DNA of 64,000 bases from Burkholderiaceae bacterium (GCA_032027205.1 JAVSMN010000001.1:1439300-1503299); one strand, 5' to 3'. Positions 24,927 to 53,314 are shown, counted from the first letter of the stretch. Made by a program: numbers and translations. The notes: generated by a model from the letters alone, not told the origin.

Positions 24927-25253
24927 ATGTTCCAGAAGGCATTGATCGCAGCAGCAGCCACCCTCGCCCTCATCAGCGTCAACGCAAACGCAGTCGACGA
25001 AGATTCTGCCAAGGCGTTGGCCAAGCAGAACAAGTGCACGAAGTGCCACTCGGTCGACAAGAAGAAGGACGGCCCGTCGTTCAAGGAAACGGCCGCCAAG
25101 TACAAGGGCAAGCCCGACGGCCCCGACAAGCTCTACACGCACCTCACGACAAGGCCGGAGATCGAGGTCGACGGCAAGAAAGAAGAGCACACGGCGGTCA
25201 AGGGCAGCGACGCCGACATCAAGAACCTGATCGCCTGGATCCTGTCGCAGTAG
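24927..25253 (+). CDS. Small soluble monohaem cytochrome c (c551/c552-like)
   Basis: Trimmed to MFQKALIAAAATLALISVNANA (signal peptide). Single CTKCH motif; 108 aa. Confidence 0.8.
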   Translation: MFQKALIAAAATLALISVNANAVDEDSAKALAKQNKCTKCHSVDKKKDGPSFKETAAKYKGKPDGPDKLYTHLTTRPEIEVDGKKEEHTAVKGSDADIKNLIAWILSQ

Positions 25254-25326
25254 CCGCGGCGCGGTCGCGCACACCGGTTCCGCTCCCTCCCCTCATTGCG
25301 TCGACCACCGCCCGGAGGCACTTGAC

Positions 25327-25974: not shown

Positions 25975-26092
25975 CGGCAACCGCGCGAATCGCGACGTCG
26001 CCACGAACACGAATACCGGCAGCAACAACCACAGCAGCATCCGCAACGGTTTCGAACTGCGAACGGGCAAGGGTCCCGTCGGGGGAGTCGAC

Positions 26093-28750: not shown

Positions 28751-28771
28751 GCGATCGGGGGAGCGTAGTCG

Positions 28772-29737
28772 ATGCGTTGGAGAGCAGCGCTGGCGGTCGC
28801 GGTCCTGTGCCTGGCCGGTACGGCAGGCACGGCGCACGCGGCCGGCCGCGACGCGCAGGCGTCGGAGAAGTGCGTCGAATGCCATGACGAGGAAGACCTC
28901 CCCGACATGAGCCGCAGCGCGCATGCGGTGTCGGCCGATCCGCGCACGCCGGGTTGCGTCACCTGCCACGGCCCGAGCCGTGAGCACGTCGAGAAGAAGG
29001 GCGGCCAGCGTCCGCCGCCCGATCGCGTGTTCAGCCGCAAGGGCGGCTCGCCGGCCGCCGAGCGCACCGAGGCCTGCATCGGCTGCCACGACCGCGACCC
29101 GAAGCGCGCGCTGTGGCCCACCAGCCAGCATCACGCGTCCGACGTCGCCTGCTCGTCGTGCCACCGCATCCACACGAACCGGGATCGCGTGCTCGTGAAG
29201 ACCGAGCAGCCCGAGGTGTGCTTTGCCTGCCACAAGGAGCAGCGGGTGCAGCTGCGACGCCCGTCGCATCACCCGATTCCCGAAGGCAAGATGACCTGCT
29301 CAGACTGCCACAACGTGCACGGTTCGATGGGGCCGAAGCTGGTCAGCCGCGACAGCACCAACGACACCTGCTACACCTGCCACGCCGAGAAGCGTGGCCC
29401 CTTCGTGCACGGGCACGAGCCGGTCACCGAGAACTGCGCGAACTGCCACAACCCGCACGGCAGCACGATCGCGGCGATGCTCACCGCGCGGCCGCCGATG
29501 CTGTGCCACCAGTGCCACACCTCTCACGTCACCGGCAACGTCGGCGCGCTCGGCGGACAGCCGGGCGTCTTCACGGCCGCCGACCCCGATCTCGGTGCGC
29601 AGATCATCGGAACGACCGGCGGCAAGAACGTCGTGAACATCTGGCAGGCGCGCAGTTGTATGAACTGCCATACGCAGGTCCACGGCTCGAACAACCCGTC
29701 GACGACGAATCCGACCCCGGCGTTCCTGGGCCGCTGA
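28772..29737 (+). CDS. mtrA: MtrA/DmsE-family periplasmic decahaem cytochrome c
   Basis: 321 aa with a signal peptide and ten CxxCH motifs (CVECH, CVTCH, CIGCH, CSSCH, CFACH, CSDCH, CYTCH, CANCH, CHQCH, CMNCH). Confidence 0.9.
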   Translation: MRWRAALAVAVLCLAGTAGTAHAAGRDAQASEKCVECHDEEDLPDMSRSAHAVSADPRTPGCVTCHGPSREHVEKKGGQRPPPDRVFSRKGGSPAAERTEACIGCHDRDPKRALWPTSQHHASDVACSSCHRIHTNRDRVLVKTEQPEVCFACHKEQRVQLRRPSHHPIPEGKMTCSDCHNVHGSMGPKLVSRDSTNDTCYTCHAEKRGPFVHGHEPVTENCANCHNPHGSTIAAMLTARPPMLCHQCHTSHVTGNVGALGGQPGVFTAADPDLGAQIIGTTGGKNVVNIWQARSCMNCHTQVHGSNNPSTTNPTPAFLGR

Positions 29738-29746
29738 GGAGGCGAG

Positions 29747-31957
29747 ATGACCACCGGGAACGCGAATCGACGCTTCGGCCGCGGAGCCCTCGCGCTGGCG
29801 TTGCTGGCGGCCTTCGGCGCCGCGCACGCGGAAGAAGACGAAGTCGTCACCGAGAAGTCGGTCACCGCCGGCGTGGGCGTGGTCAGCGGCGACGACAAGG
29901 ACCGCGCGCTCTTCGGGCAGTACAACGGACTGCGCCCCGATCGCGCCTACGGCCTTCTCGACTTCGACTACTACCGCCGCGACGACGAGAAAGGCGCGGT
30001 GGTCCGCTTCAGCGGAACCGACCTGGGGCGCGAGAACCGCGAATTACACTTCCTGTGGAAGCGGCAGGGCAACTGGAAACTCACGGCCGACTACAGCGAA
30101 CTGGTGCGCCGCGACCCGCGCACGGTGAACACCGCGATGCTCGGTTGGGGATCGACGACGCCGCAGGTCGTTTACCTGGCCACCGGACCCGGAACAGGCG
30201 CCGAGATCCACCCGAAGACGAAGCGCGAGGGCATCGCCTTCGGCTTCTCGAAGTGGGTAGCCGAGAACATCGAGTTCCAGGCGAGCCTGAAGAGCGAGAA
30301 CAAGGACGGATCGCGCATTTCCGGCATCGGATTCAACTGCCCCTCGCCGATCGCCCCCGGTTGCCGTCCGGGCACCGCGATCAGCCCGGGCTGGGCCGTG
30401 CTGATGGTTCCCGAGCCGGTCGACTCGAACCACAGCCAGATGGAAGCGCGCCTGAGCTACGCCGGCGAAAAACTGCGCATGAGCGTCGGCTACTACGGCT
30501 CGTTCTTCAGCAACTCGCACGGCTCGCTGACGCCGTTCGTGCCGGGGAGCCTGAACAACCCGCTCGGCGTGCTGCAGCCGCTGAACGCGGGCCTGCAGCC
30601 GCTGCTGTCGCAGTCGATCGCGCTCGCGCCCGACAACCAGGCGCATCACATCGACGTGACCGGCATGTACGTGTTCACGCCGAGCACGCGCGGCACCTTC
30701 AAGCTCGCCACGGCGCGAGCAACGCAGGACCAGAGCTTCGCCAGCGCGGGCCTGATCGGTCCGGCAGGAATCACCGACCTCGACGGGCGCGTCGACACGT
30801 CGTTGGCGCAGGTAGGCCTGTCGTCGCGACTCACGCCGAAACTGTCGGTGCTCGCCGAATACCGGCGCGACCGGCGCAACGACAAGACGCCGATGGCGCT
30901 GTACGACGTCATCGGCGACCCGGCGACGACCACCTATCTCACCTACACGAACCGGCAGTACGACTACACGAAGAGCCGCGGCAAGCTGCAGGCGAGCTAC
31001 CAGTTCAGCAGCGACTGGCGCGGCACGCTCGGCCTGGACTACGAGGCGATCGATCGCGGCACCATCACGCAGAGCACCGCGTTCTTCGGCATCAGCGCGT
31101 TGCGGCAGAAAACCGAGGAACTGGGCTGGCGCGCCGAGTTGCGCAAGCGCATGACCGAGACCTTCAGCGCCGGCATCAGCCTGGTGAGCAGCAATCGCGA
31201 CGGCTCCGGCTGGCTGCGGCCGGTGAGCTGGGGAACCGGCGTGGTGCCGTACGGCAACCCGCCCACGTGGCTCGCCGAAAGTTCCGTCTTCATGCCGACG
31301 CTGGCCGATCGCGATCGGGACAAGGTGCGCCTGCATGCGGTCTGGCAGCCGCTGGACGAGTTGACGCTGCAGTTCAGCGCCGACTACGGACGCGACAAGT
31401 TCAGTTCGCCGAGCATGCAGGGGCTGCAGCACACCGACATGCGGCTGTACAACATCGACTGGGACTACGCGCTGTCGCTGCGCTGGAGGCTGAACGGCTA
31501 CGTGTCCGTGGGCAGCCAGACACTGGACCAGGCACGCCCGGCCGGCTACGTGATGGCCTACGACAACGACAACACGTCGATCGGCGTCGGCGCGGTCGGC
31601 AAGGTCGATTCGAAGCTGCAGGTGGGCGGCACGCTGTCGTGGTTCAACGACCGCAACGCCTACTCGCAGACGCTCGAGCGCAACGCCGACTACGCCAGCA
31701 CCGTGCTGCTGGCGGCAACGGGCGGCCTGCCCGACATCGTGTTCCGCACGACCGAGCTGAGACTGTTCGGCCGCTACCTGCTCACGAAGAGCTCGTCGGT
31801 GCAGGTGGACTTCGTCCACTACCGCGCGCGCTTCAACGACTGGTCGTACCGCTACGACGGTACGCCGTTCGTGTTCAGCGACAACACGACGGTGGAGCAA
31901 TTGCAGCGACAGAAGGCCTCGTTCGTCGGCGTCACCTACACGCACCGGTGGCAGTGA
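29747..31957 (+). CDS. mtrB: MtrB/PioB-family decahaem-associated outer-membrane beta-barrel porin
   Basis: 736 aa with a signal peptide ..ALLAAFGAAHA and beta-barrel-like alternating sequence ending ..VGVTYTHRWQ. Lies immediately downstream of mtrA. Confidence 0.85.
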   Translation: MTTGNANRRFGRGALALALLAAFGAAHAEEDEVVTEKSVTAGVGVVSGDDKDRALFGQYNGLRPDRAYGLLDFDYYRRDDEKGAVVRFSGTDLGRENRELHFLWKRQGNWKLTADYSELVRRDPRTVNTAMLGWGSTTPQVVYLATGPGTGAEIHPKTKREGIAFGFSKWVAENIEFQASLKSENKDGSRISGIGFNCPSPIAPGCRPGTAISPGWAVLMVPEPVDSNHSQMEARLSYAGEKLRMSVGYYGSFFSNSHGSLTPFVPGSLNNPLGVLQPLNAGLQPLLSQSIALAPDNQAHHIDVTGMYVFTPSTRGTFKLATARATQDQSFASAGLIGPAGITDLDGRVDTSLAQVGLSSRLTPKLSVLAEYRRDRRNDKTPMALYDVIGDPATTTYLTYTNRQYDYTKSRGKLQASYQFSSDWRGTLGLDYEAIDRGTITQSTAFFGISALRQKTEELGWRAELRKRMTETFSAGISLVSSNRDGSGWLRPVSWGTGVVPYGNPPTWLAESSVFMPTLADRDRDKVRLHAVWQPLDELTLQFSADYGRDKFSSPSMQGLQHTDMRLYNIDWDYALSLRWRLNGYVSVGSQTLDQARPAGYVMAYDNDNTSIGVGAVGKVDSKLQVGGTLSWFNDRNAYSQTLERNADYASTVLLAATGGLPDIVFRTTELRLFGRYLLTKSSSVQVDFVHYRARFNDWSYRYDGTPFVFSDNTTVEQLQRQKASFVGVTYTHRWQ

Positions 31958-31958
31958 C

Positions 31959-32636
31959 GTGCCTCGAACCGCGATCGAACGACTCGGCTTCGCGCTTCTC
32001 CTGGCGATCCCGCTGGCGATCGTCACGCTGTTCTGGCGCTTCGAGGTCGCGCCGAGAGGCGCGACGTCGATGACCGCGCGGCTGCCCGGTGCAGCGCAGC
32101 TGTCGGGCGGCGGGCAACTCTCGGGCGGCGGCGCCCAGCACGACGCGGCGAGCGACCCGGAAATGCAGCAGATGGCCGCGCGGCTCGCGCAGCGCCTCGA
32201 ACGCGAGCCGGGGGACGCGGAAGGCTGGCGCACGCTCGCGCGCACCTACTACGTGATGCAGCGCTTCCCGGAAGCGGTCGCGGCCTACGAACGGCTCGAC
32301 GCGCTCGGCGCGCCCGACGCCGACGTGCTCGCCGACTGGGCCGACGCGGCAGCGATGGCGCAGGGTCGGCGCCTGGACGGCCGCCCACTGCAGCTCGTGC
32401 GGCGCGCGTTGGCCGCGAACCCGACGCAGTGGAAGGCGCTGTCGATGGCGGCCACCGACGCACTGGAGCGCGGAGACGTGAATGCGGCGATCGAAGGCTG
32501 GGAGCGCGCGCTAGCTGCCGTGCCCGAGGGTTCGGACAGGGCTGCATCGATCCGCTCCAGCCTAGAGCAGGCGCGCCAGTCGCTCACGGCGAGCGCCAAC
32601 AACGAGACGGGCGGCAACAGAAACGCGATCCGCTGA
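31959..32636 (+). CDS. TPR-repeat protein resembling the C-terminal apocytochrome-chaperone part of CcmI/CycH (NrfG-like)
   Basis: GTG start 2 nt after the mtrB stop. N-terminal TM segment, then ..MAARLAQRLEREPGDAEGWRTLARTYYVMQRFPEAVAAYERL.., which matches the CcmI/NrfG TPR pattern as I recall it. Confidence 0.55.
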   Translation: MPRTAIERLGFALLLAIPLAIVTLFWRFEVAPRGATSMTARLPGAAQLSGGGQLSGGGAQHDAASDPEMQQMAARLAQRLEREPGDAEGWRTLARTYYVMQRFPEAVAAYERLDALGAPDADVLADWADAAAMAQGRRLDGRPLQLVRRALAANPTQWKALSMAATDALERGDVNAAIEGWERALAAVPEGSDRAASIRSSLEQARQSLTASANNETGGNRNAIR

Positions 32637-32664
32637 TGCGGCGCGTCTCGCGCCGCCGCCAGCT

Positions 32665-33171
32665 TCAGCGCGTGCGCACCGGGATCGGCGTTGTCCGGTC
32701 GACGGGCACCGTCGTCACCGAGTTCTGCGGCGAACCTTCAATCAGGCGTTCGGCGTAGGTGAGGTAGACGAGCGCATTGCGCTGCCGGTCGACCATCCGC
32801 ACGATGCGCAGTTTCTTGAACACGAGACTGATGCGCTCGCTGAATACCTCCTCCTGCTCGGGCAGCGGCTGTGCGATCGCGATCGGCGCGACCTGCGTGC
32901 AGGCGATCGACGCCTCGGAGCGGTCTTCGGCGACGCCGAGCGCACCCTTGATGCCCCCGGTTTTCGCGCGCGACACGTAGCAGGTGACGCCGCTCACCTT
33001 CGGGTCGTCGTAGGCCTCGACGACGATCTTGTGGTCGGGGCCGATCCACTTGAAGACCGTGTCGACCTCGCCGATGGGTTCGGCCGCGGCGACGAGTGGC
33101 GCGGCAACGAGCAGCGCCGCGGCACTGCAGCGCGCGACGCCGCGCCTGGCGAGGAAAGCTGCAATCGACAT
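32665..33171 (-). CDS. creA: CreA-family protein
   Basis: 168 aa with a signal peptide. ..[29 protein letters not shown].. is characteristic of CreA. Confidence 0.8.
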
Positions 33172-33210
33172 TCGTTCGCGCTCGGAGACAGGATTTGCGC
33201 GTGCCAGGCG

Positions 33211-34666
33211 TCAGGGTCGCTGCGCGCGCCCGCTGGCCAGCAGCGCGCGGACGAAGGCGCGCGTGTGCGCACCGTATTCGCGCATCAGCGGAACGACGGT
33301 GCGAACCATCGCGTCGCGTGCAGCCGGCCCGCTCTTGGTGAGTTGCGCGTTCAGGTCAACGCCTCGCGCGTCGACCCCAAACTCGAAATCGGGGTCGTCG
33401 ACATATCTGGCCGGCAGCGCCGCGGCGACCTCGCGGTCGAGCGCATTGGCGGACTTCGCTGCACGTTTCGCCACCACGGCGCGCGGATCGTCCTCGCCGA
33501 ACACCGGATGTCGGCCAGCGGCCGCTGCGCCCCCGGCAGCCGCGGCCGCCTGGGGATCGTCGCGGCCCTCATCGGACAGCGCGCGAAGCAGCGGCCCTTC
33601 ACCGGCAGCGCCTTGCTCGGCGACCACCGCCGTGCGCTGGAAGTTCTCCAGCGCCAGGTGCCGGTTCGACACCAGCGTAATCGCCCGCGTCTTCGCGCCG
33701 GGCGAGCCGGCCATGTCGAGCGCGTTGATCCACAGCATGCGCAGCGTGCTCACGCCGGGGGAGCACGCGCGCGTGGTAGGGCTGCGTCAGATCCTGGATG
33801 TAGTGCATCGCCCAGCCGGCGAAGCGCCAGCCCCAGTAGTCGTGGCCGGTGCGCAGCGCGTGCTGCGCCAGCGTGCGGTAGAGGTGAATCCGGTATTCGG
33901 GATAGGTGCGCTTCAGGAATCCGGCCGCGGCATAGATGATCGACGACTCGTAATAGAAGCCCATGTGGAACGGCGCCTGCGTACCGAACGAGAGCGCCGG
34001 GTTGCCGAAGGGCTGCTTGCCGAAGCCGTACATGCGACCGTGCGGCGTGCCGTTGTCCTCCCAGACGCCGATGTCGAGCCCATAGTCGGGCTCGTCCGAA
34101 GCGGTGGCGCCGACGTCGAGAGGGGAAACGGACTCGCCCTCGCGCAGCGCGACGAAGGGCGAAGCGCCGACGGCGTCCTCGCCGTCGTCGTCGGCGAGCG
34201 TGCTGACGCGAGAACGGGCGAGCACCGGTCGATCGGTTGCGTCGTTCGGCGAAAGCCGCTTCAAGAACAGCGCGAGCCGCGCGTCGGGCGCGATGCGCAG
34301 CGCAGCAACGAAGCGGCGGCGCAGTTCGTCCGGCGTCTGCGCGCCTGCCGCGACGAAGCGCAGCGCGTCGGGTCGCGGCGGATACGTCGGCACGTGCTCG
34401 CGCGACCATGCTTCCGCGGCGTCGAGCACCGGCTCGAGCGCGTCGGCCTGCGCGGCAAGAAAAGCGTCGAGCGACTCGACGCGCACGGGTTCGAGCCGAG
34501 CGAACTCGGGCATGTCCTTCAACGCCGCCCAGGTGTCCAGCGCGTGGCCGCTCCAGGCGAGGGCCGGCGCGGCACACAATGCCACCGATGCGGACAGCGC
34601 GGCTCGAAAGAGCGCGAACGCCGACACGCAGCGCCGCGGGGGTCGACAGCAGGCAGGCCGATGCAT
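33211..34666 (-). pseudogene. Zinc-dependent phospholipase C / P1-nuclease-fold-like secreted protein; reading frame broken at a C5 run
   Basis: The upstream frame ends ..AMHYIQDLTQPYHARVLP. Removing one C from the C5 run (G5 at 33757-33761 on the plus strand) continues it as GVSTLRMLWINALDMAG.. (ORF 33211..33753). The mature N-terminus AWSGHA and the H-Y-x2-D-x3-P-x-H motif are PLC/P1-like. Confidence 0.5.
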
Positions 34667-40969: not shown

Positions 40970-41250
40970 TCACCGGTTGTAGAACTCGTCCCATTCGAGT
41001 TCGGTCCACCACTCGGCCTCGAGTCCGTTGCAGGTCTCGCCGTAGCCTCGGCACATGAAGCAAGCGTCACCGCGCACGAGCGCATCGTCACGGGTCCGCG
41101 GTCAGCCGGCAACTGCGCTTCCTTCACGAGCGCGTCGAAGAGCACGTGCTCTTCGCGATCGTGATGGAAACGGCCGGCGAACTCGGTGAAGAAGGCAGCG
41201 AACCGTCTGCCGTCCTCCAGGTCCGCAGTTCCGGCGACGCGTTCGCGCGC
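40970..41250 (-). pseudogene. Possible hemerythrin-like domain remnant with a frameshift
   Basis: Own translation: ..RFAAFFTEFAGRFHHDREEHVLFDALVKEAQLP.. Then, in another frame, ..DDALVRGDACFMCRGYGETCNGLEAEWWTELEWDEFYNR-stop. There is no start codon, and the upstream end abuts the methyltransferase stop. Confidence 0.35.
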
Positions 41251-41254
41251 CTCG

Positions 41255-42001
41255 TCACCGCCTCATCAGCGCGAACACACCCCAGCCCAGGTATTCACGC
41301 GTGTATGTGGCATAGCGCTCGGGTTCCGAGGTCAGTGTGGCTCGAACCTCTTTCGCGAACTCGTCGTCGGGATTGGCTTCAAGCCACCGGCGCATCGTGA
41401 GCCACTTGGCCGCCTCGTATCGGTCCCAGCTGTCCTGGTCCGCCAGGACCATCTCCACGACGTCGTAGCCGAGGCGGCCGAAAGACGCGAGAAGCTGCGG
41501 AAGCAGGAGGAAATCGGAGATCGAGCCGGCGAGACAGCCCTTGGCGACATCTTCCGTCGGCGGCAACTGCCGCCAATAGGGTTCGCCGATGAGGATGATT
41601 CCGCCAGGGCGCAGGCTCTGCGCCAGAAGTTCGATGGTGCCGGCGACTCCCCCACCGATCCACGTGGCGCCCAGACATGCTGCCACACCGACCTTCTCGT
41701 CAGAGACGAAGCCGGCAGCATCGCCATGGAGGAACGTGACTCGATCGGCGACACCCAGTTCTTCAGCGCGAAGTTTCGCTTGCTCGGTGAACAACTGGCT
41801 CAAGTCGATTCCGGTGCCGATGACTCCGTAATCGCGTGCCCAGGTGCACAGCATCTCCCCCGAACCGCTACCGAGATCGAGCACTCGGGTTCCCGGTTCC
41901 AGACGCAGCGCGGCGCCGAGAGTGGCTAGCTTTTCGGGCGTGAACGGGTCATGGATGCGGTGAGCGCTCTCGGTGATGTTGAAGATCCGTGGAATATCCA
42001 T
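41255..42001 (-). CDS. Class I SAM-dependent methyltransferase
   Basis: Trimmed to MDIPRIFNITES.. Motif I is VLDLGSGSGEM. Confidence 0.85.
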   Translation of the reverse strand: MDIPRIFNITESAHRIHDPFTPEKLATLGAALRLEPGTRVLDLGSGSGEMLCTWARDYGVIGTGIDLSQLFTEQAKLRAEELGVADRVTFLHGDAAGFVSDEKVGVAACLGATWIGGGVAGTIELLAQSLRPGGIILIGEPYWRQLPPTEDVAKGCLAGSISDFLLLPQLLASFGRLGYDVVEMVLADQDSWDRYEAAKWLTMRRWLEANPDDEFAKEVRATLTSEPERYATYTREYLGWGVFALMRR

Positions 42002-42147
42002 TGCGAGAATCTCCCGAGTTGCTTTTGGAACGACGCGTCGATCGTGCTCGTCAGCGTCTTGAGGGCCCGGTTTCGCGGGCTCGCGAACATGTCGGCGCCA
42101 CTTCGGGAGTGGCAAGAACCTCGCGCGCCGAGCGTCGGCGACCGACT

Positions 42148-42489
42148 CTAGGACTGGGGATCGGCCCCGAAGACGCGAAGCTCTTGGCCGCAGCGGCAGG
42201 CCTTTGCGATGCGGGCGGCCCATAGAACAGCCTCTTCACGCGCCGGAACTTCCAGCACGGCAAAACCGCCGTTCAGCATGGGTGCCCACGGATAGCCGCC
42301 CTCTACGACAGTACCGTCGGCGGACACGAGCACGGGCGGCACCTGTTCGTCGATTCCTCCGGCAAACACATACACGCCAGCAGCCTTGGCTTGGTCGATC
42401 ACCGCGCGCGCGTCGCGGCCCACCGCCTCCCACTCACCGTCCGCGACGCGCATCGCAGCGCTCGGGAACGAGATCAGGTATCTGGCCAT
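42148..42489 (-). CDS. YciI/DGPF-like family protein
   Basis: 113 aa: MARYLISFPSAAM..AAGVYVFAGGI..GGFAVLEV.. is YCII-related-like. Confidence 0.7.
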   Translation of the reverse strand: MARYLISFPSAAMRVADGEWEAVGRDARAVIDQAKAAGVYVFAGGIDEQVPPVLVSADGTVVEGGYPWAPMLNGGFAVLEVPAREEAVLWAARIAKACRCGQELRVFGADPQS

Positions 42490-42559
42490 GGTGCTCTTCC
42501 GGGAACCAGCGCCGGCGACGGCAGTACTGCTATTGCAGTCGCCACATTGCCCCCTTGGC

Positions 42560-42637
42560 AGCTAACGTTCGACACGAGCGGCGGACGAAAGCTGGCGCAG
42601 TCCGCTGGAGGACGTCCGCTCGATGGAGGGGTCAGGC
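42560..42637 (-). other. attC recombination site (78 bp, 'house' family)
   Basis: agCTAACgttcgacacgagcggc...gtccgctcgatggagggGTCAGGc. The stop codon of the upstream cassette ORF lies in the GTCAGG end. Confidence 0.7.
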
Positions 42638-43078
42638 CCCGCCTTCGACATTCTGCGGCTCATGCTCGAGGGACGCGTCCGGTCTCCCGCTGACGGCGAC
42701 CATTGTCCACTGATCACCTTGCTTGAGATAGACCTCTGTCCACTTGCCCGTGACATCGAGTGGCATGCCCACCCGGGGCTCCACTGTCGCTCTGTAGGAG
42801 TAGTGCACGACACCGACCTTGTGCTCGTAGACCTGGACGCTATGCGGAAAGAGTGAGTAGCGCTGCAGTACCGGCGTATCTCCAGTGACCGACTCGATGG
42901 CGGAGTCCTTGTCGTGTGGAAGCTCCGTCGACATGTCCCAGCCGACGTACTGTGGATGCAGGGCCGATCCGATGAGTGCTCGATCGCGGCTGCGCGACTG
43001 AGCCCACAACTCATCAACTCGATCCCACAACTCGCGTTGCTCCTGTGACAACCCCTGTATGGCGATACTCGTCCGCAC
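42632..43078 (-). CDS. SnoaL-like / DUF4440 (NTF2-fold) protein, cassette-type
   Basis: 148 aa with a GTG start. ..GKWTEVYLKQGDQWTMVAVSG.. is typical of NTF2-like proteins. Confidence 0.65.
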   Translation of the reverse strand: MRTSIAIQGLSQEQRELWDRVDELWAQSRSRDRALIGSALHPQYVGWDMSTELPHDKDSAIESVTGDTPVLQRYSLFPHSVQVYEHKVGVVHYSYRATVEPRVGMPLDVTGKWTEVYLKQGDQWTMVAVSGRPDASLEHEPQNVEGGA

Positions 43079-43116
43079 AACGGTGACTCCTGCCGCCCAT
43101 CGCTCGAACTGAGCGG

Positions 43117-43767
43117 TTAGTCCGCACTCTTGCCGGGAAATAGAAGATCGAACAGAGCTGCGATCTTCGGAGTCATGGCCGACCGCCGAGGTCTGGCGAA
43201 GTCGTCTTCGTCGACAAGGACCTTCGTGTAGATCGCTTCGTAGACCCGCTTCACGACGCCGGGCTCCACGAGCTCCTGGTCGAAGCCAGGAATGATGCCG
43301 ATCAACTGCCAGCCGAGCCGCTCGAATTTTTCCGCCATGTACGGCACCTTGAGCGTTGCCAGGCTGTACACCATGCCCATTCCCATCGCACGGCCAAGTG
43401 CCTCGATGAGGCTGGGAAAGCGTTCGCTCAGGTTGATTCCGCGGTGTTGTGGGGAGATGGCGCCAACCCGCCCGTACAACACTTCACTGTCCTTGTCTCG
43501 CTCCACGGAGAGGACTCCCACGAGTTCCTGGCCGTGCTTGAACAGGATGACGAAGAAGTCGCGCTCCGGCTGACCGTCGAGCACCACTCTTTCCTCGTAG
43601 AAGCTCGGCTTGAGGTGGCAACTCGCGTTGCCGACGGCGATGCCTGGATACCAGGAGGCGAAGGCGTTCACCGTTTCCGGGATGTCGGCCCGCGTAATCA
43701 GCTGATACCGGTAGCCCTCGGGAAGCGGGGCACTCGTGGAGAGGTTGTCGATGCTGGTCCACGGCAT
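43117..43767 (-). CDS. GNAT-family N-acetyltransferase
   Basis: Trimmed to MPWTSIDNLS.. (GGGAGA Shine-Dalgarno sequence). Motif A-like ..VGAISPQHRGINLSERF.. Confidence 0.7.
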   Translation of the reverse strand: MPWTSIDNLSTSAPLPEGYRYQLITRADIPETVNAFASWYPGIAVGNASCHLKPSFYEERVVLDGQPERDFFVILFKHGQELVGVLSVERDKDSEVLYGRVGAISPQHRGINLSERFPSLIEALGRAMGMGMVYSLATLKVPYMAEKFERLGWQLIGIIPGFDQELVEPGVVKRVYEAIYTKVLVDEDDFARPRRSAMTPKIAALFDLLFPGKSAD

Positions 43768-43857
43768 GGCGTTCTCCCGAGGCACAGAGCATGCGGCCGC
43801 CGGTTCATTCTGCGCGCAAGAATCGCGCACGTCACCATCGCGGCTCTGTCTCGGCAC

Positions 43858-44268
43858 TCATGAGGTCGCGATCTCGTCGTAGCCACGGCCAACAAACTCA
43901 ATCAGGCACAGACCATTGCCGAAGGGATCCGCCAGGAGCGCCAACTTGCCCCAGGTGCTGCTCCGAGTGGGCGTCTCGACAGTGGCGCCCGCCGCGACGG
44001 CACGACGAAGTGCGTTGTCGATATCGCGAACAACGAAGTCGAGGTGAACCGGCGTCCAATGACGCCCGTAGTCGCGGAGCTGCGTGGCATTCGCAAATGG
44101 CTGGGTGCCACGTGCCTTGACCAGCAGATAGATCGGTGCGCAAGCTCCGAGCAGTTCGACTGCGTCCGTTCCCAATCTGCGCCCGATCCGCAAATCAAAC
44201 GCGCCGGTATAGAAGGCAATGGCGCGCTGCAAGTCGTCGACGTCGATATTCACCAACAGCTCGGCCAT
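43858..44268 (-). CDS. VOC (glyoxalase/bleomycin-resistance) family protein
   Basis: 136 aa: MAELLVNIDVDDLQRAIAFYTGAFDL..LADPFGNGLCLIE.. Confidence 0.8.
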   Translation of the reverse strand: MAELLVNIDVDDLQRAIAFYTGAFDLRIGRRLGTDAVELLGACAPIYLLVKARGTQPFANATQLRDYGRHWTPVHLDFVVRDIDNALRRAVAAGATVETPTRSSTWGKLALLADPFGNGLCLIEFVGRGYDEIATS

Positions 44269-44280
44269 CGCTGCGTCCCG

Positions 44281-44358
44281 AGCTGACGTTCGACGTGAGC
44301 GGCGACTGCAGGCGAGCGAAGCTTGCCGGCAGACGTCCGCTCGATGAAAGGGTCAGGC
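44281..44358 (-). other. attC recombination site (78 bp, 'house' family)
   Basis: agCTGACgttcgacgtgagcggc...gtccgctcgatgaaaggGTCAGGc. Same backbone as the sites at 42560 and 50944. Confidence 0.7.
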
Positions 44359-44393
44359 CGCGCGTTCGACCTCTTCTGGTTCGGCGTCATCCG

Positions 44394-44795
44394 CTACCGA
44401 TCTTCGCCGTGAAAAGAAATGCGCCACCGATCCGGCTCGTGGCACTCGAACAACTCGATAAGCAAGTCGTCCGGTCCGGCGATCATGACGTATTGGAATG
44501 TCTCGTCTTCCTGGATCGGCTTGCGAAAGGCGAACCCGTTCGACTTCATATGGTCGACCAGCCGGGCGAGATCGTCAGTCGCGATTCCCAGGTGATGAAA
44601 CGCCCCACCTCGCGGAACCTTGGGCGGCTGATCGTAGATCAGGATGAACGCACCTCCGATCTGCAGGCGGATGCCTCGCGCGCCGGCCACCACTTCATCC
44701 CAAACGACAGTCGCGCCGAACATGGTCTGGAAGAAACGGACCGTGGCCGCTGGGTCCGAAGCGAAGATATGGGCGTGGTCCAGACTGACTCGCAT
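44394..44795 (-). CDS. VOC (glyoxalase) family protein
   Basis: 133 aa: MRVSLDHAHIFASDPAATVRFFQTMFGA..FHHLGIATDDL.. Confidence 0.8.
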   Translation of the reverse strand: MRVSLDHAHIFASDPAATVRFFQTMFGATVVWDEVVAGARGIRLQIGGAFILIYDQPPKVPRGGAFHHLGIATDDLARLVDHMKSNGFAFRKPIQEDETFQYVMIAGPDDLLIELFECHEPDRWRISFHGEDR

Positions 44796-45048
44796 GGCGT
44801 CCTCAGTCCTTCATGTTGATGACATCCGAGACGCGCTGGTACCGTGCAGCCACGTGATCGTTGATCCAGACGTGCAGTTCCTCGGCGCTCGCCGTCGCGC
44901 GCTCGCGCAAGAACGAGAGTCGCGAGGTCGAGTGACTCCCTGGCGCGGCAATTACATCACGCGAGCGACCAACAATCCTGGATGACACTTCAGGGCGCGC
45001 GCGAGCCCCTTTGCACGTTCGACGCCAATCCGAACGCGCTCGTTCTAA

Positions 45049-45423
45049 TCAGGTCGGCTCGAACATGATGAGACGACAACCCGACGTGCCGATGTTCTCG
45101 ACGACGTGGCCAGGGATCGGCCGCTGCACGTTTGCGGCGCCGGCGCGTAGGTGGGCGTCCCGGTATGTTCCGTCCTGGGAGTACATCCTGAGACTGCAGT
45201 CCGTCAGAGGGTAGACGGCGTTGGCCGGGTGCGAGTGGACTACGTCCTTCTGCCCCGGCTTCCAGGTCACCTCAATGACCTTGTATTGGTCGTTCTGAGC
45301 GATGACCTTGTAGATGTCGGGCGATGCCACGAATGAGCGAGGCAACTCTTGCGCGAGCGCCTGGCTGGCAGGGCCCAGACAGTTCGCCGTGAGCAGAGCG
45401 GCGACAGCGATGTATCTGCGCAT
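45049..45423 (-). CDS. Secreted cupin-like protein
   Basis: Trimmed to MRRYIAVAALLTANCLGPASQALA (signal peptide). ..DVVHSHPANAVYPL.. and ..GHVVENIG.. are cupin-like. The ORF-track start at 45450 is also possible. Confidence 0.6.
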   Translation of the reverse strand: MRRYIAVAALLTANCLGPASQALAQELPRSFVASPDIYKVIAQNDQYKVIEVTWKPGQKDVVHSHPANAVYPLTDCSLRMYSQDGTYRDAHLRAGAANVQRPIPGHVVENIGTSGCRLIMFEPT

Positions 45424-45539
45424 ACGGTTTCCTGAGGGGTGCGTGGTCATGTGACCACGGCCTCAGGTTAGCGGTCGTGTTAGCGCCGCAGTAATACTGA
45501 CCCACTTCGTCGGAGTAAAACTGACCCACCTGGCCGACG

Positions 45540-48374
<2,835 letters not shown>

Positions 48375-48426
48375 AAGCTGGAGTAGCCTGCCTCCGGAGC
48401 CCCTTCAAAGAGGGCATGGAGGAGCG

Positions 48427-49538
48427 ATGAAGAAGTCGAGGTATACGGAGGAGCAGATCGCCTATGTGCTGCGTCAGGCCGAATCGGGTACGCCGGTGTC
48501 TGACGTGTGCCGCAGCACCGGGATCTCGGAGGCGACCTTCTACAACTGGAAAAAGAAGTACGCGAACCTGGGTGTCACGGAATTGCGCCGGCTCAAGCAG
48601 CTCGAAGACGAGAACGCACGCCTGAAGCGCCTGGTGGCCGATCTGACGCTGGACAAACACATCCTGAACGAGGTGATCCGAAAAAAGCTCTGACGCCGAC
48701 GCGGCGCCGAGAGCTCACTCGATGGATCCACGAACGGTTCCAGGTGAGCTTGACGCGAGCGTGTCGGCTGGGTGGGGTCAGCCGGGCCGGTTGGTACCGG
48801 CGCAGCACCGCACGGGATCACAGTGGGCTGCAGATGCGAATTCGCGATCTCGCGCTCAGCCGGCCACGCTTCGGCTATCGGCGCATCCATGTGCTGCTGC
48901 GTCGCGAGGGCTGGCTGATCAACCTGAAACGCGTACATCGGCTCTACCGCCTGGAAGGGCTGCAGGTGCGAATGCGGGTCAGGCGACGCAAGCGGCTCAG
49001 CCTGCATCGCGGCCCCGCGCCCGCAGCGCGGGCCCTTGATGAACGGTGGAGCATGGATTTCGTCCACGATCAGCTGGTCGACGGCAGGACGTTTCGTGTG
49101 CTGACCGTCGTCGACAATTGGAGTCGTGAGAGCGTATTGCTGGAGGCCGGGTTCCGGCTCACCGGCCAGAGCGTCGTGGCGGCACTGGCGAGAGTGGCAA
49201 CCCGACGCAAGCTTCCGCGTTCGATCACCGTCGACCATGGCACCGAGTTCACCTCGCGGGCTTTGGATGAATGGGCGTGGGCGAGCGGAGTACAGCTGGA
49301 CTTCACGCGACCCGGCAGGCCCACCGATAATGGGCTGTGCGAGTCGTTCAATGGTCGGCTGCGCGATGAATGCCTGAACGTCACCGAGTTTGAATCGATT
49401 GCCCATGCGCATCAAAGGCTGGAGGCTTGGCGCACCGACTACAACGAGCAACGTCCACATGGCGCACTCGGTCATCTGACCCCGAGTGAATACGCCCGAT
49501 CAGGTCGGACCCATGCTTCGGAAGGCGAGTCACCCTAG
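48427..49538 (+). CDS. IS3-family transposase OrfA (48427-48693) / OrfB (to 49538), with an A6G slippery heptamer at 48681-48687
   Basis: OrfA is MKKSRYTEEQIAYVLRQAESGTPVSDVCRSTGISEATFYNWKKKY.. The -1 frame after AAAAAAG continues KKALTPTRRRELTRWIHERF.. with DDE motifs ..WSMDFV..TVDHGTEF..ESFNGRLRDECLN.. Confidence 0.85.
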
Positions 49539-49622
49539 TTCAGAACCGTCTACAAAATGGGGCAACGTCATCGTCAAAGCGGACTCTAATCCCGGGCGGG
49601 ACTGATTCAGGGGAGCAGGTCA

Positions 49623-49806
49623 GGTAAAGACAATCTGCGTTAACGCCACCATCAAGGGGGTCGAAATACGGGATCTCATACCCGCTACCCATCTCTATTC
49701 GGAGACTTCTAACGAAAGCCGAAACCGGTGCGACGTGGTCGTCTTCAATTGCTGCGAGACGCTGCTGGCGCGCTTCGGGTGATCTGAGAATCTTCGGCGC
49801 GCCCAT
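49623..49806 (-). pseudogene. Cassette ORF truncated by IS insertion (possibly a uracil-DNA-glycosylase-superfamily-like N-terminus)
   Basis: MGAPKILRSPEARQQRLAAIEDDHVAPVSAFVRSLRIEMGSGYEIPYFDPLDGGVNADCLYL, then runs into the IS terminus. The FDPxDGG motif recalled from UDG-like proteins is weak evidence. Confidence 0.4.
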
Positions 49807-49821
49807 GTCTTCGCTTATGTC

Positions 49822-49920
49822 GACTAACGTTCAAGCTCAGCGGCCGGCAAAAGAGGCGCGGCTTTTGCGCAAGCAAAAGGCGTGACGCATTTGACGGTCC
49901 GCTGCAGCGAAATGTTAGGC
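49822..49920 (-). other. attC recombination site (99 bp, divergent type)
   Basis: GACTAACgttcaagctcagcggcc...gacggtccgctgcagcgaaatGTTAGGC. The central arms are complementary (ggcaaaagaggcgcggcttttgcgcaagcaaaagg). Confidence 0.75.
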
Positions 49921-49930
49921 CGCACCATCA

Positions 49931-50353
49931 TCATTTCTGTCCGCGAATCCACAGCGGGTGAATGTACTGACCATGGATGGAACGTAGCTCTGGCTCATTC
50001 GTGTGTCGGAGCTGGCCACTCGCTGAATCGTGCCGAAAGCGACTGTAGGCCTCGCTGTCAGCCGCAAGAATCTCAAGAGCACCGCGACGAACCCGCCAAG
50101 TCGATTCATTGGCATTGCGACCTTCTCCGATGTCACCGTTATCCAGGAACGTGAGCACTTTCGACTGGCCGGTCATCGGATTGAATACGAAGTTAAATCG
50201 CCTCCCATTCAGAAGCAGCTTCCCAAGCTTGCGCGAAGAAAGCCACCATCTCAATGGCCCAGCAAGCCAAGCGACCGCTGCCAGGAAAGCCGTTGCCAAG
50301 ATAGTGGCAATGATCTGCCCCGCGATCGAGCTAAGTAAGGCGTCTGGATCCAT
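49931..50353 (-). CDS. Cassette 3 ORF: small N-terminally membrane-anchored protein, no recognisable domain
   Basis: 140 aa with a TM helix IAGQIIATILATAFLAAVAWLAG followed by a ~100-aa soluble part. Low GC. Confidence 0.6.
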   Translation of the reverse strand: MDPDALLSSIAGQIIATILATAFLAAVAWLAGPLRWWLSSRKLGKLLLNGRRFNFVFNPMTGQSKVLTFLDNGDIGEGRNANESTWRVRRGALEILAADSEAYSRFRHDSASGQLRHTNEPELRSIHGQYIHPLWIRGQK

Positions 50354-50371
50354 CGGCGACCTTGCGCTGCG

Positions 50372-50429
50372 GCCTAACGTTAGAATTCACCGGCTGCCAA
50401 AGGCAGTCCGGTGCGACGACCGGTTAGGT
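50372..50429 (-). other. attC recombination site (58 bp, canonical short type)
   Basis: GCCTAACgttagaattcaccggctgccaaaggcagtccggtgcgacgaccgGTTAGGT. Has perfect RYYYAAC and GTTRRRY ends and complementary inner arms. Confidence 0.8.
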
Positions 50430-50439
50430 CGGGGCATGC

Positions 50440-50922
50440 CTATGAGATTTTCCGAATGGAGACCACCGCCGACTCAATTTTCAGGGTATCTCGGTCGAAC
50501 CACGTGGCCTGACCGTCCATAGCGAGTCGATCTGGGCTGACAATGAGCTGGATAAGGCCGTTGCCTGTTGTATTTCCTTTCTCTCCAACCTTTTCGTACG
50601 AACCGAATACGAGGTTGTGCTTGATTCGTAAGTCGTAGAGAAACCTCCGCTTCTCAGACTTCGTCTCCCCTTCTCCGGACACGCTGCTTCCAAGATGACG
50701 AAGCCGTAGACATTCGAGCTCCTCTCGAAGTGACTTCGGGTCTATAGGATCAGGTTCCTTGAACGTGTACTCCCACGTCCCGGTTAGATCGAAACGATCC
50801 GGATTGACGAAGTGAAAAAGCCAGCCGAGCAAGTTGCCCGAGACTCTTGCGAATGGCGGTGACATGTAGTTTGCGACGAGGCTCGCTACGACCCCCAGGG
50901 CAAAACCGGTCAGTATCTCCAT
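50440..50922 (-). CDS. Cassette 2 ORF: small N-terminally membrane-anchored protein, no recognisable domain
   Basis: Trimmed to MEILTGFALGVVASLVANYMS.. 160 aa. The ORF-track N-terminal extension would run into the attC. Low GC. Confidence 0.6.
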   Translation of the reverse strand: MEILTGFALGVVASLVANYMSPPFARVSGNLLGWLFHFVNPDRFDLTGTWEYTFKEPDPIDPKSLREELECLRLRHLGSSVSGEGETKSEKRRFLYDLRIKHNLVFGSYEKVGEKGNTTGNGLIQLIVSPDRLAMDGQATWFDRDTLKIESAVVSIRKIS

Positions 50923-50943
50923 AAGCTTCCCATTGGTGTTACG

Positions 50944-51021
50944 CCCTAACGTTTGACATGAGCGGCAGTTGGAGGCAAGCAAAGCTTGCCGGAAGCTGTC
51001 CGCTCGATGGAGGGGTTAGAG
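50944..51021 (-). other. attC recombination site (78 bp, 'house' family)
   Basis: CCCTAACgtttgacatgagcggc...gtccgctcgatggagggGTTAGAG. Confidence 0.75.
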
Positions 51022-51036
51022 CGCGTTGATCTGAAC

Positions 51037-51948
51037 TCACGCATTCATCGGCCCCCAAGAGTGCAGGCCGCGGACCGAGAGAACTGGTTGGAGCGGAGGA
51101 GCTTCGCTTTCTCCAAGCTTTTGCCAATGATTCTGGACAGCGACGGGGTCGAGCGCACCGAGTGTGAATGCATTCGTGATAACGAAACCTGTCTGCTCAT
51201 CGCGTAGACCGCTGAGCTGCTCTATCGGCACATGACCATAGTACCTCTGGCGTGTGACGTGAAGCGAAACAGTTAGAGCGACAGGAATGAGCATCCCGTA
51301 ACTGTTATCGATCTTGGTGACGATATCGGGAATAAGCGGAACCTGCTCGTGGACGCCGGGATCGGATGGGTACGTGCCTTCGTTCCATCGCTGGGTAGCG
51401 ATGTCGTAGATGACACCGAGGGGTTGCCCATCCTCAGAGAAAACGGGTAGCTCAAAAAACCGCTGCGGGAGACTAAACGGTACAGGTGCGGAACAAGAAA
51501 TCTCGAAACCGATACGGGTGGCTCGAAAGTCGCACACGACTGGCAACGCTAGTCGGACCTGCCATTTGTGAGAGCCTGTGTCCGCAGGACTGTAGAGATC
51601 AATATGCAGCTTTTTAGCGCGCTTCTTGGCAGACTTTGTGAAGCCAGAGGGGCAAACAAGAGCGCCCTTGTGAGCGCCAATGTCTTGGACAAGGCCATGA
51701 AACTCTTCGACACCTTTCACATCAACGGGTGACCCATAGTCTTTGCAATCGAGTGCAACTCGCATCGGATACTGACCGATGTTCTGCTCAACCAGAACAT
51801 CGATCTGACGGGTTGTCTCGCTCAGCAGACCGGGCACCTTCGCGTTGTGTGTGACTTTGGCGTGCGGTGCGAGTTGCTTCTGGATGGATGCGACTAACAG
51901 CTCAAGCTGTTGCCACTCAGGTTTCTGTGCGTTCACCGTTTTGCGCAA
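51037..51948 (-). CDS. Cassette 1 ORF: PD-(D/E)xK restriction-endonuclease-like (Mrr_cat-type) N-terminal domain fused to an unknown ~175-aa C-terminal domain
   Basis: 303 aa with a TTG start (alternative GTG at 51936). ..RQIDVLVEQNIGQYPMRVALDCKDYGSPVDVKGVEEFHGLVQDIGAHKGALVCPSGFTKSAKKRAKK.. fits the D..(D/E)xK core and layout of Mrr-type nucleases. A spot count gives 53% GC. Confidence 0.65.
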   Translation of the reverse strand: MRKTVNAQKPEWQQLELLVASIQKQLAPHAKVTHNAKVPGLLSETTRQIDVLVEQNIGQYPMRVALDCKDYGSPVDVKGVEEFHGLVQDIGAHKGALVCPSGFTKSAKKRAKKLHIDLYSPADTGSHKWQVRLALPVVCDFRATRIGFEISCSAPVPFSLPQRFFELPVFSEDGQPLGVIYDIATQRWNEGTYPSDPGVHEQVPLIPDIVTKIDNSYGMLIPVALTVSLHVTRQRYYGHVPIEQLSGLRDEQTGFVITNAFTLGALDPVAVQNHWQKLGESEAPPLQPVLSVRGLHSWGPMNA

Positions 51949-51975
51949 AGGGATACAAGCCGTTGTACGCCGCGG

Positions 51976-51994
51976 GTTAGCACGCGCTCTAACG
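51976..51994 (-). other. Putative attI / first-cassette junction
   Basis: On the plus strand this reads GTTAGCACGCGCTCTAAC|G. CTCTAAC sits where the other cassettes have their RYYYAA|C boundary. No integrase-binding repeats were identified. Confidence 0.3.
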
Positions 51995-52349
51995 TGTTTT
52001 GGAGCGATCCCGCACCGCGATTCCGTCCCCCCGCACGGCGATAACCTGTGTGGTCACGTGACCGCAAGTGCTTCTTGCCATTGACGAAAATCCCCGCGCT
52101 CACCACGAACGGCCGACGTAACCGGGCCTGCAAGCACCGCTGGACCGACGACGGTGCCCGGTCGCACCGATATAAACCGGCGCCGACGAAATAACCGTAC
52201 GCGTCCGCACGCGCCCGAACGACGCTCACGCTACGTCTTTCGCGAAGTGCCCCGCAGGCGACACGAATAACAACTTCGCAACGCCCGCTGGCGATTGCAC
52301 GACTCCACCCGTTCTTATTAGTCCGTTCGCACGATGGTCGCAATCCTTT

Positions 52350-52365
52350 CTGTATGAAGATACAG
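52350..52365. promoter_or_regulatory. LexA (SOS) box CTGT-N8-ACAG immediately upstream of intI
   Basis: Read directly as CTGTATGAAGATACAG, ending 6 nt before the ATG at 52371. Confidence 0.7.
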
Positions 52366-52370
52366 CGATC

Positions 52371-52801
52371 ATGCAACCGCCGTCCACTCATTCGATCGCC
52401 GTGAGCCGACCGACGGCCGGTCGCGAACATGGCGAGGCCCAACCTCCGCGTCTGATCTCGAGCTGCGTGAGCGCATTCGCTACCTTCATTACAGCCTTCG
52501 CACCGAGCAGGCATATATCTATTGGGTTCGCGCGTTCGTGCGCTACAGCGGCATGCGCCATCCTCGGGAACTCGGGCAGGGCGATGTCGAACGCTTTCTC
52601 TCGTTTCTCGCGAACGAGCGCCACGTCTCGGTCTCGACACACAAGCAGGCGTTGTGCGCGTTGCTCTTTCTCTACCGGGAAGTGCTGGGGCACTAACTGC
52701 CGTGGATGGAGAAACTCGGCCGCCCGAAGGCCCGCGCGCGGGTTCCAGCGCCCAGCCCGCTCGACGGTCTCCCGGTCGACGTGCCGATCCCTGCGGACTA
52801 A
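52371..52801 (+). pseudogene. intI: Integron integrase intI, inactivated (frameshift near codon 28, in-frame TAA at 52694-52696, 3' two-thirds deleted)
   Basis: The ATG frame gives [28 protein letters not shown]. The -1 frame from 52454 gives [101 protein letters not shown]. Homology is lost beyond about 52750. Confidence 0.8.
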
Positions 52802-52951
52802 TGCTCGATGCGCGAGCGTCCTGTCCGTTCGGCGGCTCGCCCGCGCTTCGAATCGCCCGGCGAGGATGCGCGAGAATCCTCCCGTGCGCGCCGGTCCCCG
52901 CGCGCAGGTTCCCTACGCAGTCCGCCCGCAACCTCCTCCCCGGAGTCCGAC

Positions 52952-53314
52952 ATGGGTTGGTTCTCGAAGAAGCAGGAAGACGACTTCTTCCTCGCTACCG
53001 TCGCGCCCGACGACGATGTCGCGCGCGTCGGGGAATACCTCGGCGTCGTGAACGGCGAGGCGATCATCGGTGCACACATCCTGCGCGATCTTTTCTCGTC
53101 GGTACGCGACATCGTCGGCGGCCGCGCGGGCGGCTACGAGCGGGCGCTGTCCGGCGCGCGCGACGCCGCGCTGGGCGACATGATCGCCGCGGCGCGCGAA
53201 CGCGGTGCCGACGGCGTCGTCGGCATCGATTTCGACTACGAGGTTCTCGGCGAGACCAACGGGATGATGATGGTGTCGGTCAGCGGGACGGCGGTGAAGA
53301 TGGCGAAGCGCTAA
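52952..53314 (+). CDS. YbjQ (UPF0145) family protein
   Basis: Trimmed to [12 protein letters not shown].. ..[41 protein letters not shown].. is characteristic of the family. Confidence 0.8.

Follow-up and report, generated by a model that had tools for sequence, protein, structure and literature searches.

Inactivated chromosomal integrons, as found in Xanthomonas and in soil and freshwater proteobacteria, have a common layout in which an integrase gene (intI), its recombination site (attI) and a divergent array of gene cassettes occupy a fixed chromosomal site; intI has been lost through frameshifts, stop codons, deletions or insertion sequences (IS), and the cassettes encode mostly small proteins of unknown or accessory function. 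Xanthomonas integrons lying next to ilvD and carrying an inactivated intI were reportedly described by Gillings et al. in PNAS in 2005. An estimated 43-46% of intI homologues are inactivated, and this correlates with the absence of control by LexA (Cambray et al. 2011, PMC3108266). Clusters of attC sites lacking integron-integrases (CALIN) are common and hold about 5 attC sites on average; 38% have a neighbouring IS, and decay of integrons or their disruption by IS has been put forward as the origin (Cury et al. 2016, PMC4889954). Here we describe a locus in a 64,000-nucleotide (nt) stretch of DNA (hereafter the window) from an uncultured Burkholderiaceae bacterium (GCA_032027205.1, JAVSMN010000001.1:1439300-1503299), with positions counted from the first letter of the stretch. 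The locus is, with high confidence, best explained as a decayed chromosomal integron. Its fate, in which intI was destroyed and the array was broken by insertion sequences, is ordinary and well known for integrons. What sets it apart from other inactivated chromosomal integrons is its host, represented by a metagenome-assembled genome (MAG), and its position between a hemerythrin gene and ybjQ.

The integrase gene survives as a pseudogene, the true ends of which, 52371 and 52801, had been given in an earlier note made from the sequence alone. The IntI-like translation of 52454-52693 (+) reported there is exact, and after its terminating TAA the reading continues as LPWMEKLGRPKARARVP. Colinearity with the N-terminus of integron integrases was borne out by the NCBIfam integron-integrase profile NF011946 (E=3.2e-42, 144.9 bits, profile positions 19-115 of 337) and by the integron-integrase model TIGR02249 (E=7e-31, 107.7 bits), scores that fall short of the full-length cut-offs for the sole reason that just a fragment of the gene is left. 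The Pfam domain Phage_int_SAM_4, an N-terminal SAM-like domain typical of IntI, was also matched (E=4e-26). The best Xer-type model, XerA, in contrast reached only E=1.2e-4 and 21.7 bits, and the comparison named beforehand as able to overturn the assignment thus fell clearly in favour of descent from IntI over an XerC/XerD-type recombinase.

The integrase had been claimed to be dead on the strength of a single lesion; three were found. The IntI-like reading is frame 2 of 52370-52801, whereas the ATG at 52371 opens another frame. In a protein alignment the N-terminus lies in the ATG frame and relatives continue ...QPPRLLxxLRERIRY across the region in question; one base was therefore lost after CTG 52452-52454, giving a -1 frameshift at about 52455. 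The second lesion is a GAA to TAA change at 52694-52696 that hits the E of the conserved GQELPW motif. The third is an in-frame internal deletion of ~624 nt (junction 52747/52748) that corresponds to residues ~137-344 of an intact relative, a region of ~208 residues that held the catalytic residues and the IntI-specific insertion. The tblastn match of the intact 397-amino-acid (aa) IntI of a related contig, L001, was confined to 52436-52747 (78% identity, ending at RVP), and the same search found no catalytic-domain sequence of IntI anywhere in the 64-kb window. The relic retains residues ~32-136 together with the last ~17 codons. These 17 codons, APSPLDGLPVDVPIPAD followed by the stop, are the C-terminal end of IntI (APSPLDGL..., compared with TPSPLDGL in L001 and RSPLDAL in IntI1), and their DNA aligned with the intI 3' ends of L001, L018 and L002 at a score of 34, whereas 200 shuffles reached at most 30. 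The locus can no longer yield a recombinase.

The few lesions, of which the one-base frameshift and the lone stop could be errors of sequencing in a MAG, might be taken to mean that the integron is still active, with both defects being either bypassed by recoding or introduced during assembly. This is barely credible, the least probable of the explanations weighed here, and is effectively excluded: the ~208-residue catalytic region is missing from the whole window, and three contigs spanning intI (L082-L084), which derive from different samples and assemblers, are 99.9-100% identical to the window over the gene and carry the same lesions, the stop codon and the deletion included.

Upstream of intI lies a perfect CTGT-N8-ACAG LexA box, as the earlier note had it, although the gap to the ATG is 5 nt and not the 6 nt given there. 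The motif occurs once in the window, where 0.30 occurrences would be expected by chance (shuffles). Of 19 related non-class-1 loci, 12 have a LexA box 74-94 nt upstream of the IntI match, as do class 1 loci, and two more of the 19 have it at 222 nt. The predicted box, unique in the window and conserved in position among relatives, suggests that intI was SOS-regulated. Its retention differs from the reported correlation between inactivation and loss of LexA control (PMC3108266).

To the left of intI, the layout of intI, attI and a cassette array of small minus-strand open reading frames (ORFs) divergent from intI was borne out. The five imperfect palindromes previously proposed as attC-type sites, at coordinates right to within 4 nt, proved to be one repeat family with a common hairpin. 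The sites are 58-99 nt long, with a centre of variable length, and show 64-77% identity to one another. On the minus strand they have in common an R'' box (G/C)CCT(A/G)AC, an L''/L' helix GAGCGGAC/GCCGCTC and an R' box AACGT(T/C)AG. Alignment folding of the five with RNAalifold gave a single hairpin with 10 compensated pairs, and folds of the + strand, opposite to the cassette-coding strand, have a conserved unpaired T in the GTCCGC arm; the site at 49822-49920 had a fold z-score of -5.5.

Matches of a covariance model to its own five training sites were not counted as proof, and external contigs, chosen by IntI similarity alone, served as the test. The five-site model yielded 19 further minus-strand matches in L001, L003, L014, L016, L018, L019, L072 and L073, in each case upstream of an IntI homologue and divergent from it; in L001, L003, L016, L018 and L019 the intI gene beside the array is intact. 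Another model, trained on the 24 sites, detected more attC in L097, L098 and L101, where intI is likewise intact. Across the 24 sites, 93.7% of cells were paired, compared with 23-41% when the partners were slid, 14 pairs carried double (compensatory) changes and the observed covariation score was reached by no shuffle. Judged by the external matches, the pairing and the covariation, the five predicted minus-strand sites are genuine attC sites. With filters off, neither model gave any other significant minus-strand attC in the window, and neither found one left of 42556 (minus strand), in the small-gene region at 33-41 kb or in the relative L081. An attC-like stretch at 43091-43126 (11.5-12.1 bits, E 0.5-1.2) is not significant and is at most a possible remnant, and a degenerate attC considered at about 45010-45048 (ACGTTCGACGCC...GCGCTCG) was rejected after comparison with L097 showed it to be coding sequence of an antitoxin remnant. 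A 37-nt imperfect palindrome at 45431-45467 (CCTGAGG-ggtg-CGTGGTCA-tg-TGACCACG-g-CCTCAGG) was also observed just upstream of the probable start of a 133-aa secreted ORF and 10 nt from the left end of an IS21-family element. It is preceded on the minus strand by the inverse-core-like CGCTAAC, has no R' core and received no score from the attC models.

Integrated cassettes begin with TTRRRY, which pairs with their own inverse core. Complementarity of the cassette starts to their own R'' sides (Table 1) fixes the crossover of the candidate attI between 51993 and 51992, at the minus-strand motif CAAAACAC-G/TTAGAG (slashes within motifs mark crossovers or junctions). The motif AACACGTTAG/GTTAGG also occurs upstream of intI in L016, L013 and L018, in the forms CAACACGTTAGGCC, GAACACGTTGAAC and ATTAGGTTAGGCG respectively, and class 1 attI1 reads AAAACAAAGTTA in L009. 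The attC-bounded cassettes stand beside intI and are divergent from it.

The attC sites form two groups, three in 49818-51025 and two in 42556-44362, and the insertion sequences put 5.4 kb between them. IntegronFinder defines CALIN as at least 2 attC within 4 kb of each other with no intI called nearby. The groups of three and two sites (by the present covariance model) and the lack of an intact intI agree with this definition, and the locus would be returned as CALIN, probably as two of them, given the 5.4 kb of IS between the groups. The pseudogene test of the program relies on a C-terminal IntI profile, and that region is deleted here (PMC4889954). The locus further resembles CALIN in its small size and its IS neighbours. 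Its origin is visible, however, in the intI remnant and candidate attI that are still attached, and this remnant no longer has the C-terminal region on which the published pseudogene screen relies. That the cassettes never had a platform here, having been inserted at a secondary chromosomal site or translocated as an array fragment, is very improbable and effectively excluded: a remnant of intI with both ends, a LexA box and an attI-like site lie divergent beside the first cassette, and this already refutes such an origin.

The three insertion sequences claimed within the array were identified with NCBIfam models as one IS21-family and two IS3-family elements. The outer IS3-family element has inverted repeats TGACCTGCTCCC...AGTCCCG...TAGAGTCC lying at 47149 and 49622 (arms 47167-47189 and 49581-49603) and matches transpos_IS3 at 2e-73 for orfB and 2e-14 for orfA. 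No target-site duplication was found at its ends, which is consistent with an adjacent deletion. On its left, istB of the IS21-family element is cut at about residue 189, and on its right cassette 4 is cut after 61 codons; with neighbours cut on both sides, an adjacent deletion took the rest of the IS21-family element, the rest of cassette 4 and anything between them. The nested element has 14-nt inverted repeats TGACGTTGTCCCAT and ATGGGGCAACGTCA (93% complementary; transpos_IS3 6.7e-72), and both IS3-family copies exceed the NCBIfam cut-off of 160 bits. A scaffold of another sample has exactly 1227 N at the nested element, and other assemblies break at 48344. The IS21-family element (transpos_IS21 7e-96) has both istA and istB (IstA 321 bits, cut-off 160; IstB profile positions 1-188 of 253) and several terminal repeats, which form a tandem series at its left end (direct repeats 45484-45531). 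Its right end is gone, and plasmid copies of IS21 match 45477-47148 only.

Table 1. Features of the decayed integron and its flanks, from left to right in the window.
Feature	Coordinates	Strand	Remarks
Hemerythrin pseudogene, left flank	40970..41244	-	5' end deleted at boundary; 297 bp lost internally
Terminal segment without attC	41245..42565	-	YciI-like 113-aa ORF 42148-42489; SAM methyltransferase about 41255-42001
attC	42560-42637	-	91 bits (covariance model)
1.7-kb unit between two attC	42566..44286	-	Three ORFs; ends in attC 42560-42637
ORFs of 1.7-kb unit	VOC 43858-44268; unknown 43117-43857; DUF4440 42632-43078	-	
Start of 1.7-kb distal unit		-	GTCAG...; own R'' CTGAC, matched T to C / A to G change
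attC	44281-44358	-	91 bits
Distal array segment	44287..45477	-	Three ORFs/remnants; ends in attC 44281-44358
VOC/glyoxalase ORF	44394-44795	-	Pfam Glyoxalase 1e-13
XRE/HigA-type antitoxin 3' remnant	44952-45044	-	Last 30 codons
133-aa secreted ORF	45049-45450	-	In distal array segment
IS21-family element	45478..47148	+	istA intact; istB truncated at ~residue 189 of ~253 by IS3 insertion or deletion
Outer IS3-family element	47149..49622	-	~41-nt terminal inverted repeats; split by nested element
Nested IS3-family element, 1227 bp	48344..49570	+	Inside leader of outer IS3; flanking direct repeat TCGTC
Cassette 4, truncated	49623..49827	-	First ~61 codons of ORF; cut by end of IS3-family element
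attC	49822-49920	-	71 bits
Cassette 3, 550 bp	49828..50377	-	140-aa hypothetical ORF 49931-50353 + attC 49822-49920
Cassette 3 start		-	GTTAGGCCGCA; 11/11 match to complement of own attC R'' side
attC	50372-50429	-	58 bits
Cassette 2, 572 bp	50378..50949	-	Hypothetical membrane-like ORF within 50440-50982 + attC 50372-50429
Cassette 2 start		-	GTTAGGGCGTA; 8/11 match to complement of own attC R'' side
attC	50944-51021	-	98 bits
Cassette 1, 1043 bp	50950..51992	-	Mrr_cat restriction-endonuclease-like ORF 51037-51948 + attC 50944-51021
Cassette 1 start		-	GTTAGAGCGCG; 11/11 match to complement of own attC R'' side
Candidate attI	51993..52060	-	...GGTTATCGCC...CTCCAAAACAC-G/TTAGAGCGCG; crossover 51993/51992; upstream extent inferred
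LexA (SOS) box	52350..52365		CTGTATGAAGATACAG; 5 nt upstream of intI ATG 52371
intI pseudogene	52371..52801	+	ATG 52371; stop 52799-52801; IntI profile matches, protein alignment
ybjQ-family gene, right flank	52952..53314	+	Core homology with L081 back at about 52847

The genes of the island include an Mrr-like nuclease, two VOC/glyoxalase proteins, DUF4440 and YciI-like proteins and a methyltransferase. The nuclease assignment comes from the ORF of cassette 1 (Pfam Mrr_cat 1.1e-11), and the only match returned by PADLOC for the window was a weak one to this Mrr-like protein (PDC-S02, 4e-6). The ORF of cassette 2 had no family match in Pfam, and neither Rfam nor tRNA scans returned a match in the window. 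A tblastn search of the cassette proteins against 164 loci found no common cassette genes; the antitoxin remnant is an exception in that it was queried out of frame, and its only tie to another locus is a DNA match to L097. The G+C content is 53-57% in cassettes 1-4 (53-56% in cassette 1) and 60-63% in the distal part, compared with 67-72% in the flanking chromosome.

By comparison with the congeneric contig L081, which is syntenic on both sides of the locus at ~86% DNA identity, the island extends from 41245 to about 52846 and measures 11.6 kb. In its place L081 has the gene order hemerythrin-VOC-RibD_C-ybjQ; neither attC nor intI was found in that interval, and the terminal segment without attC is also absent from L081. 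The left end, left open in the earlier note, is now placed at 41244/41245, within a hemerythrin pseudogene that aligns by blastn with L081 7934-8053 and 8351-8506, both inside the intact gene at 7934-8584. Since this gene is truncated, the left boundary of the island is a deletion junction. The term chromosomal holds, since syntenic core genes flank the locus on a contig of 4.0 Mb, yet it must be read beside a count of only five attC sites and the absence of the element from a congeneric genome. In 15 contigs of the same population from other samples, the island or parts of it were 99.87-100% identical to the window, and the contigs reaching the insertion sequences carry the same elements. Recurrence of the structure across samples shows that it is fixed in the population and did not arise during assembly.

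Three other regions of the window differ from L081 and were noted in passing. An 8.4-kb insertion at 24778-33229 holds a porin-cytochrome extracellular electron-transfer cluster, consisting of a NapC/NirT (CymA-like) tetrahaem protein (25327-25974), an MtrC/OmcA-like multihaem protein (26093-28750), an MtrA-like paired-CXXCH protein (28772-29737), an MtrB/PioB porin (29747-31957, E=2e-132) and a CcmH-TPR protein. A second insertion at 22440-23811 contains a polysaccharide pyruvyl transferase ORF (22461-23699). The segment 35161-40970 is a variable zone of small minus-strand accessory genes with several indels relative to L081 (MAPEG, oxidoreductase, 3-dmu-9_3-mt, CMD, alpha/beta hydrolase, class II aldolase and cupin); it resembles a cassette array, but neither model found attC there and nothing ties the zone to the integron.

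Among intact integrases, the IntI fragment comes closest to IntI proteins of environmental Burkholderiaceae, with 78-90% identity; over the N-terminal match of ~77 residues, identity was 84% with L001, 90% with L097 and 87% with L098. These integrons have the IntI clade and the attC type in common with the window. They have a full-length intI (384-398 aa) and, in the DNA examined, 3-7 attC, and share no cassette gene with the window apart from the antitoxin remnant. A check of the ybjQ site in close relatives for an intact intI had been proposed: L081 proved to be without the element, and the relatives with an intact intI have a CoA-transferase gene cluster downstream of it in place of ybjQ, L098 among them. 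L098 encodes an intact 398-aa IntI and has three attC; the distal end of its array borders on a hemerythrin homologue that is oriented as in the window and is 86.6% identical to window 41106-41239. The shared neighbour suggests that the locus may be an old integron site in this group.

The remnant of an antitoxin gene bears on the distal part of the array. It is 81% identical in DNA to the complete HigB/HigA-like cassette antitoxin in the intact array of L097 and starts 4 nt past the stop of the adjoining 133-aa ORF. In the alignment with L097, the R' core in the attC of the toxin-antitoxin cassette falls on a 7-nt gap in the window. The cassette itself was observed at L097 3504-4046, a related uncultured Burkholderiaceae contig, as a complete HigB/RelE-like toxin and XRE antitoxin.

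Several observations weigh against reading the locus as a decaying chromosomal integron. Two distal intervals hold several ORFs with no internal attC, which is unusual for cassettes. Loss of attC sites and genes by deletion would explain them, and this probable cause has limited evidence in its favour, namely the one antitoxin remnant and the one non-significant attC-like remnant. No sigma-70 consensus promoter (Pc or PintI) was found on either strand of 51900-52850, in a scan that is crude for a genome of ~67% G+C. The DNA of the intI fragment is 76-80% identical to intI of the L001/L098 type, while the neighbouring core DNA is 86% identical, so orthology with the L098 integron is not established. 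The locus falls outside the sedentary integrons of Cury et al., which have >19 attC or are present in all genomes of a species (PMC4889954): it has five attC and L081 is without the structure. All contigs of this population carry it, but they are near-identical to each other.

The greater divergence of intI than of core DNA belongs equally to the main rival, which concerns the history of the locus and not its nature: a formerly mobile integron, borne by a transposon, plasmid or island, would have landed beside ybjQ and decayed there. Such an origin would account for the absence of the element from L081, with its VOC and RibD_C genes at the site, for the low G+C content of the proximal cassettes, for the insertion sequences and for attC sites that are few and as heterogeneous in length and sequence as those of mobile integrons. 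We consider it unlikely, since neither the island nor its surroundings yielded tni genes of the Tn402 type, ends of a transposon or plasmid genes, core homology resumes ~45 nt past the 3' end of intI, the intact integron of L098 has a hemerythrin homologue of the same orientation as its neighbour, and the structure is shared, at an identity of at least 99.87%, by all 15 metagenome or MAG contigs of the population, which come from several samples.

Class 1 platforms offer a further comparison. The N-terminal 76 residues of the relic are 74% identical to IntI1, a LexA box likewise lies immediately upstream of intI, and the attI context AAAACAC-GTTAG resembles attI1. The relic is nevertheless not IntI1, and the locus is without a 3' conserved segment, tni genes or resistance cassettes. 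In one of the loci compared, the chromosome of Comamonas testosteroni NFYY023 (L009 9947-10600), the intI1 frame is cut after ...DLPW and continues into GroEL-like C-terminal sequence, indicating a truncated or fused intI1.

For the decayed chromosomal integron the following history is proposed. IntI would originally have been made from a LexA-repressed promoter and would have inserted promoterless cassettes at attI (G/TT, 51993/51992), giving rise to the minus-strand array. The gene was then hit by the frameshift, the nonsense mutation and the in-frame deletion of the catalytic domain. The IS21-family element and the two IS3-family elements, one nested, entered the array, and deletions next to them took some of IS21 and the greater part of cassette 4, together with an unknown number of cassettes. 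Further deletions removed most of the toxin-antitoxin cassette and, probably, attC sites, and entered the hemerythrin gene. The events in the array presumably followed this order. What remains is a static 11.6-kb island of about a dozen small accessory genes. The array had been described as frozen; this is right as to the loss of the integrase, although deletions have eroded the array as well. The five surviving attC sites are predicted to fold correctly and would recombine only with an integrase supplied in trans. The relic has few lesions, the LexA box is intact and the low-G+C proximal cassettes are unameliorated, all of which suggests that inactivation was fairly recent.

The locus represents a clean, dissectable case of integron death, in which point lesions, deletion of the catalytic domain, nested insertion sequences and deletion scars can be told apart and in which a stabilising toxin-antitoxin cassette was lost as well. 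The understanding of integrons is unchanged by it, as inactivated integrases and IS-disrupted arrays are already common and well described (PMC3108266, PMC4889954), and only the host and the site are new. An array that current software would report as an orphan CALIN can, as this case shows, be assigned to its former platform from what is left beside it: the N-terminal part of intI, the LexA box and a candidate attI. The published screen for intI pseudogenes uses a C-terminal IntI profile together with PF00589 (PMC4889954). A relic made up of the N-terminal part and the extreme C-terminus would escape it, and the locus would be scored as an orphan CALIN.

Comparable deletions were found in two L001-type IntI sequences from other MAGs or metagenomes. 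P0098 (locus L096 236-715) and P0003 have in-frame deletions of the catalytic region with differing breakpoints (junctions ...GQE/LLGHSDV... and ...VLSRE/PPQPPP...), and gene callers read both as intact short ORFs. A tentative and rather doubtful extension is that this Burkholderiaceae IntI clade has lost its recombinase repeatedly, through in-frame internal deletions that leave the initial ~380 nt of intI and its 3' end in place. If true, this would suggest selection to stop recombination while keeping a LexA-controlled promoter region that may drive the cassettes; many orphan CALIN would then be decayed integrons, with N-terminal-only relics that escape the current screens based on C-terminal profiles.

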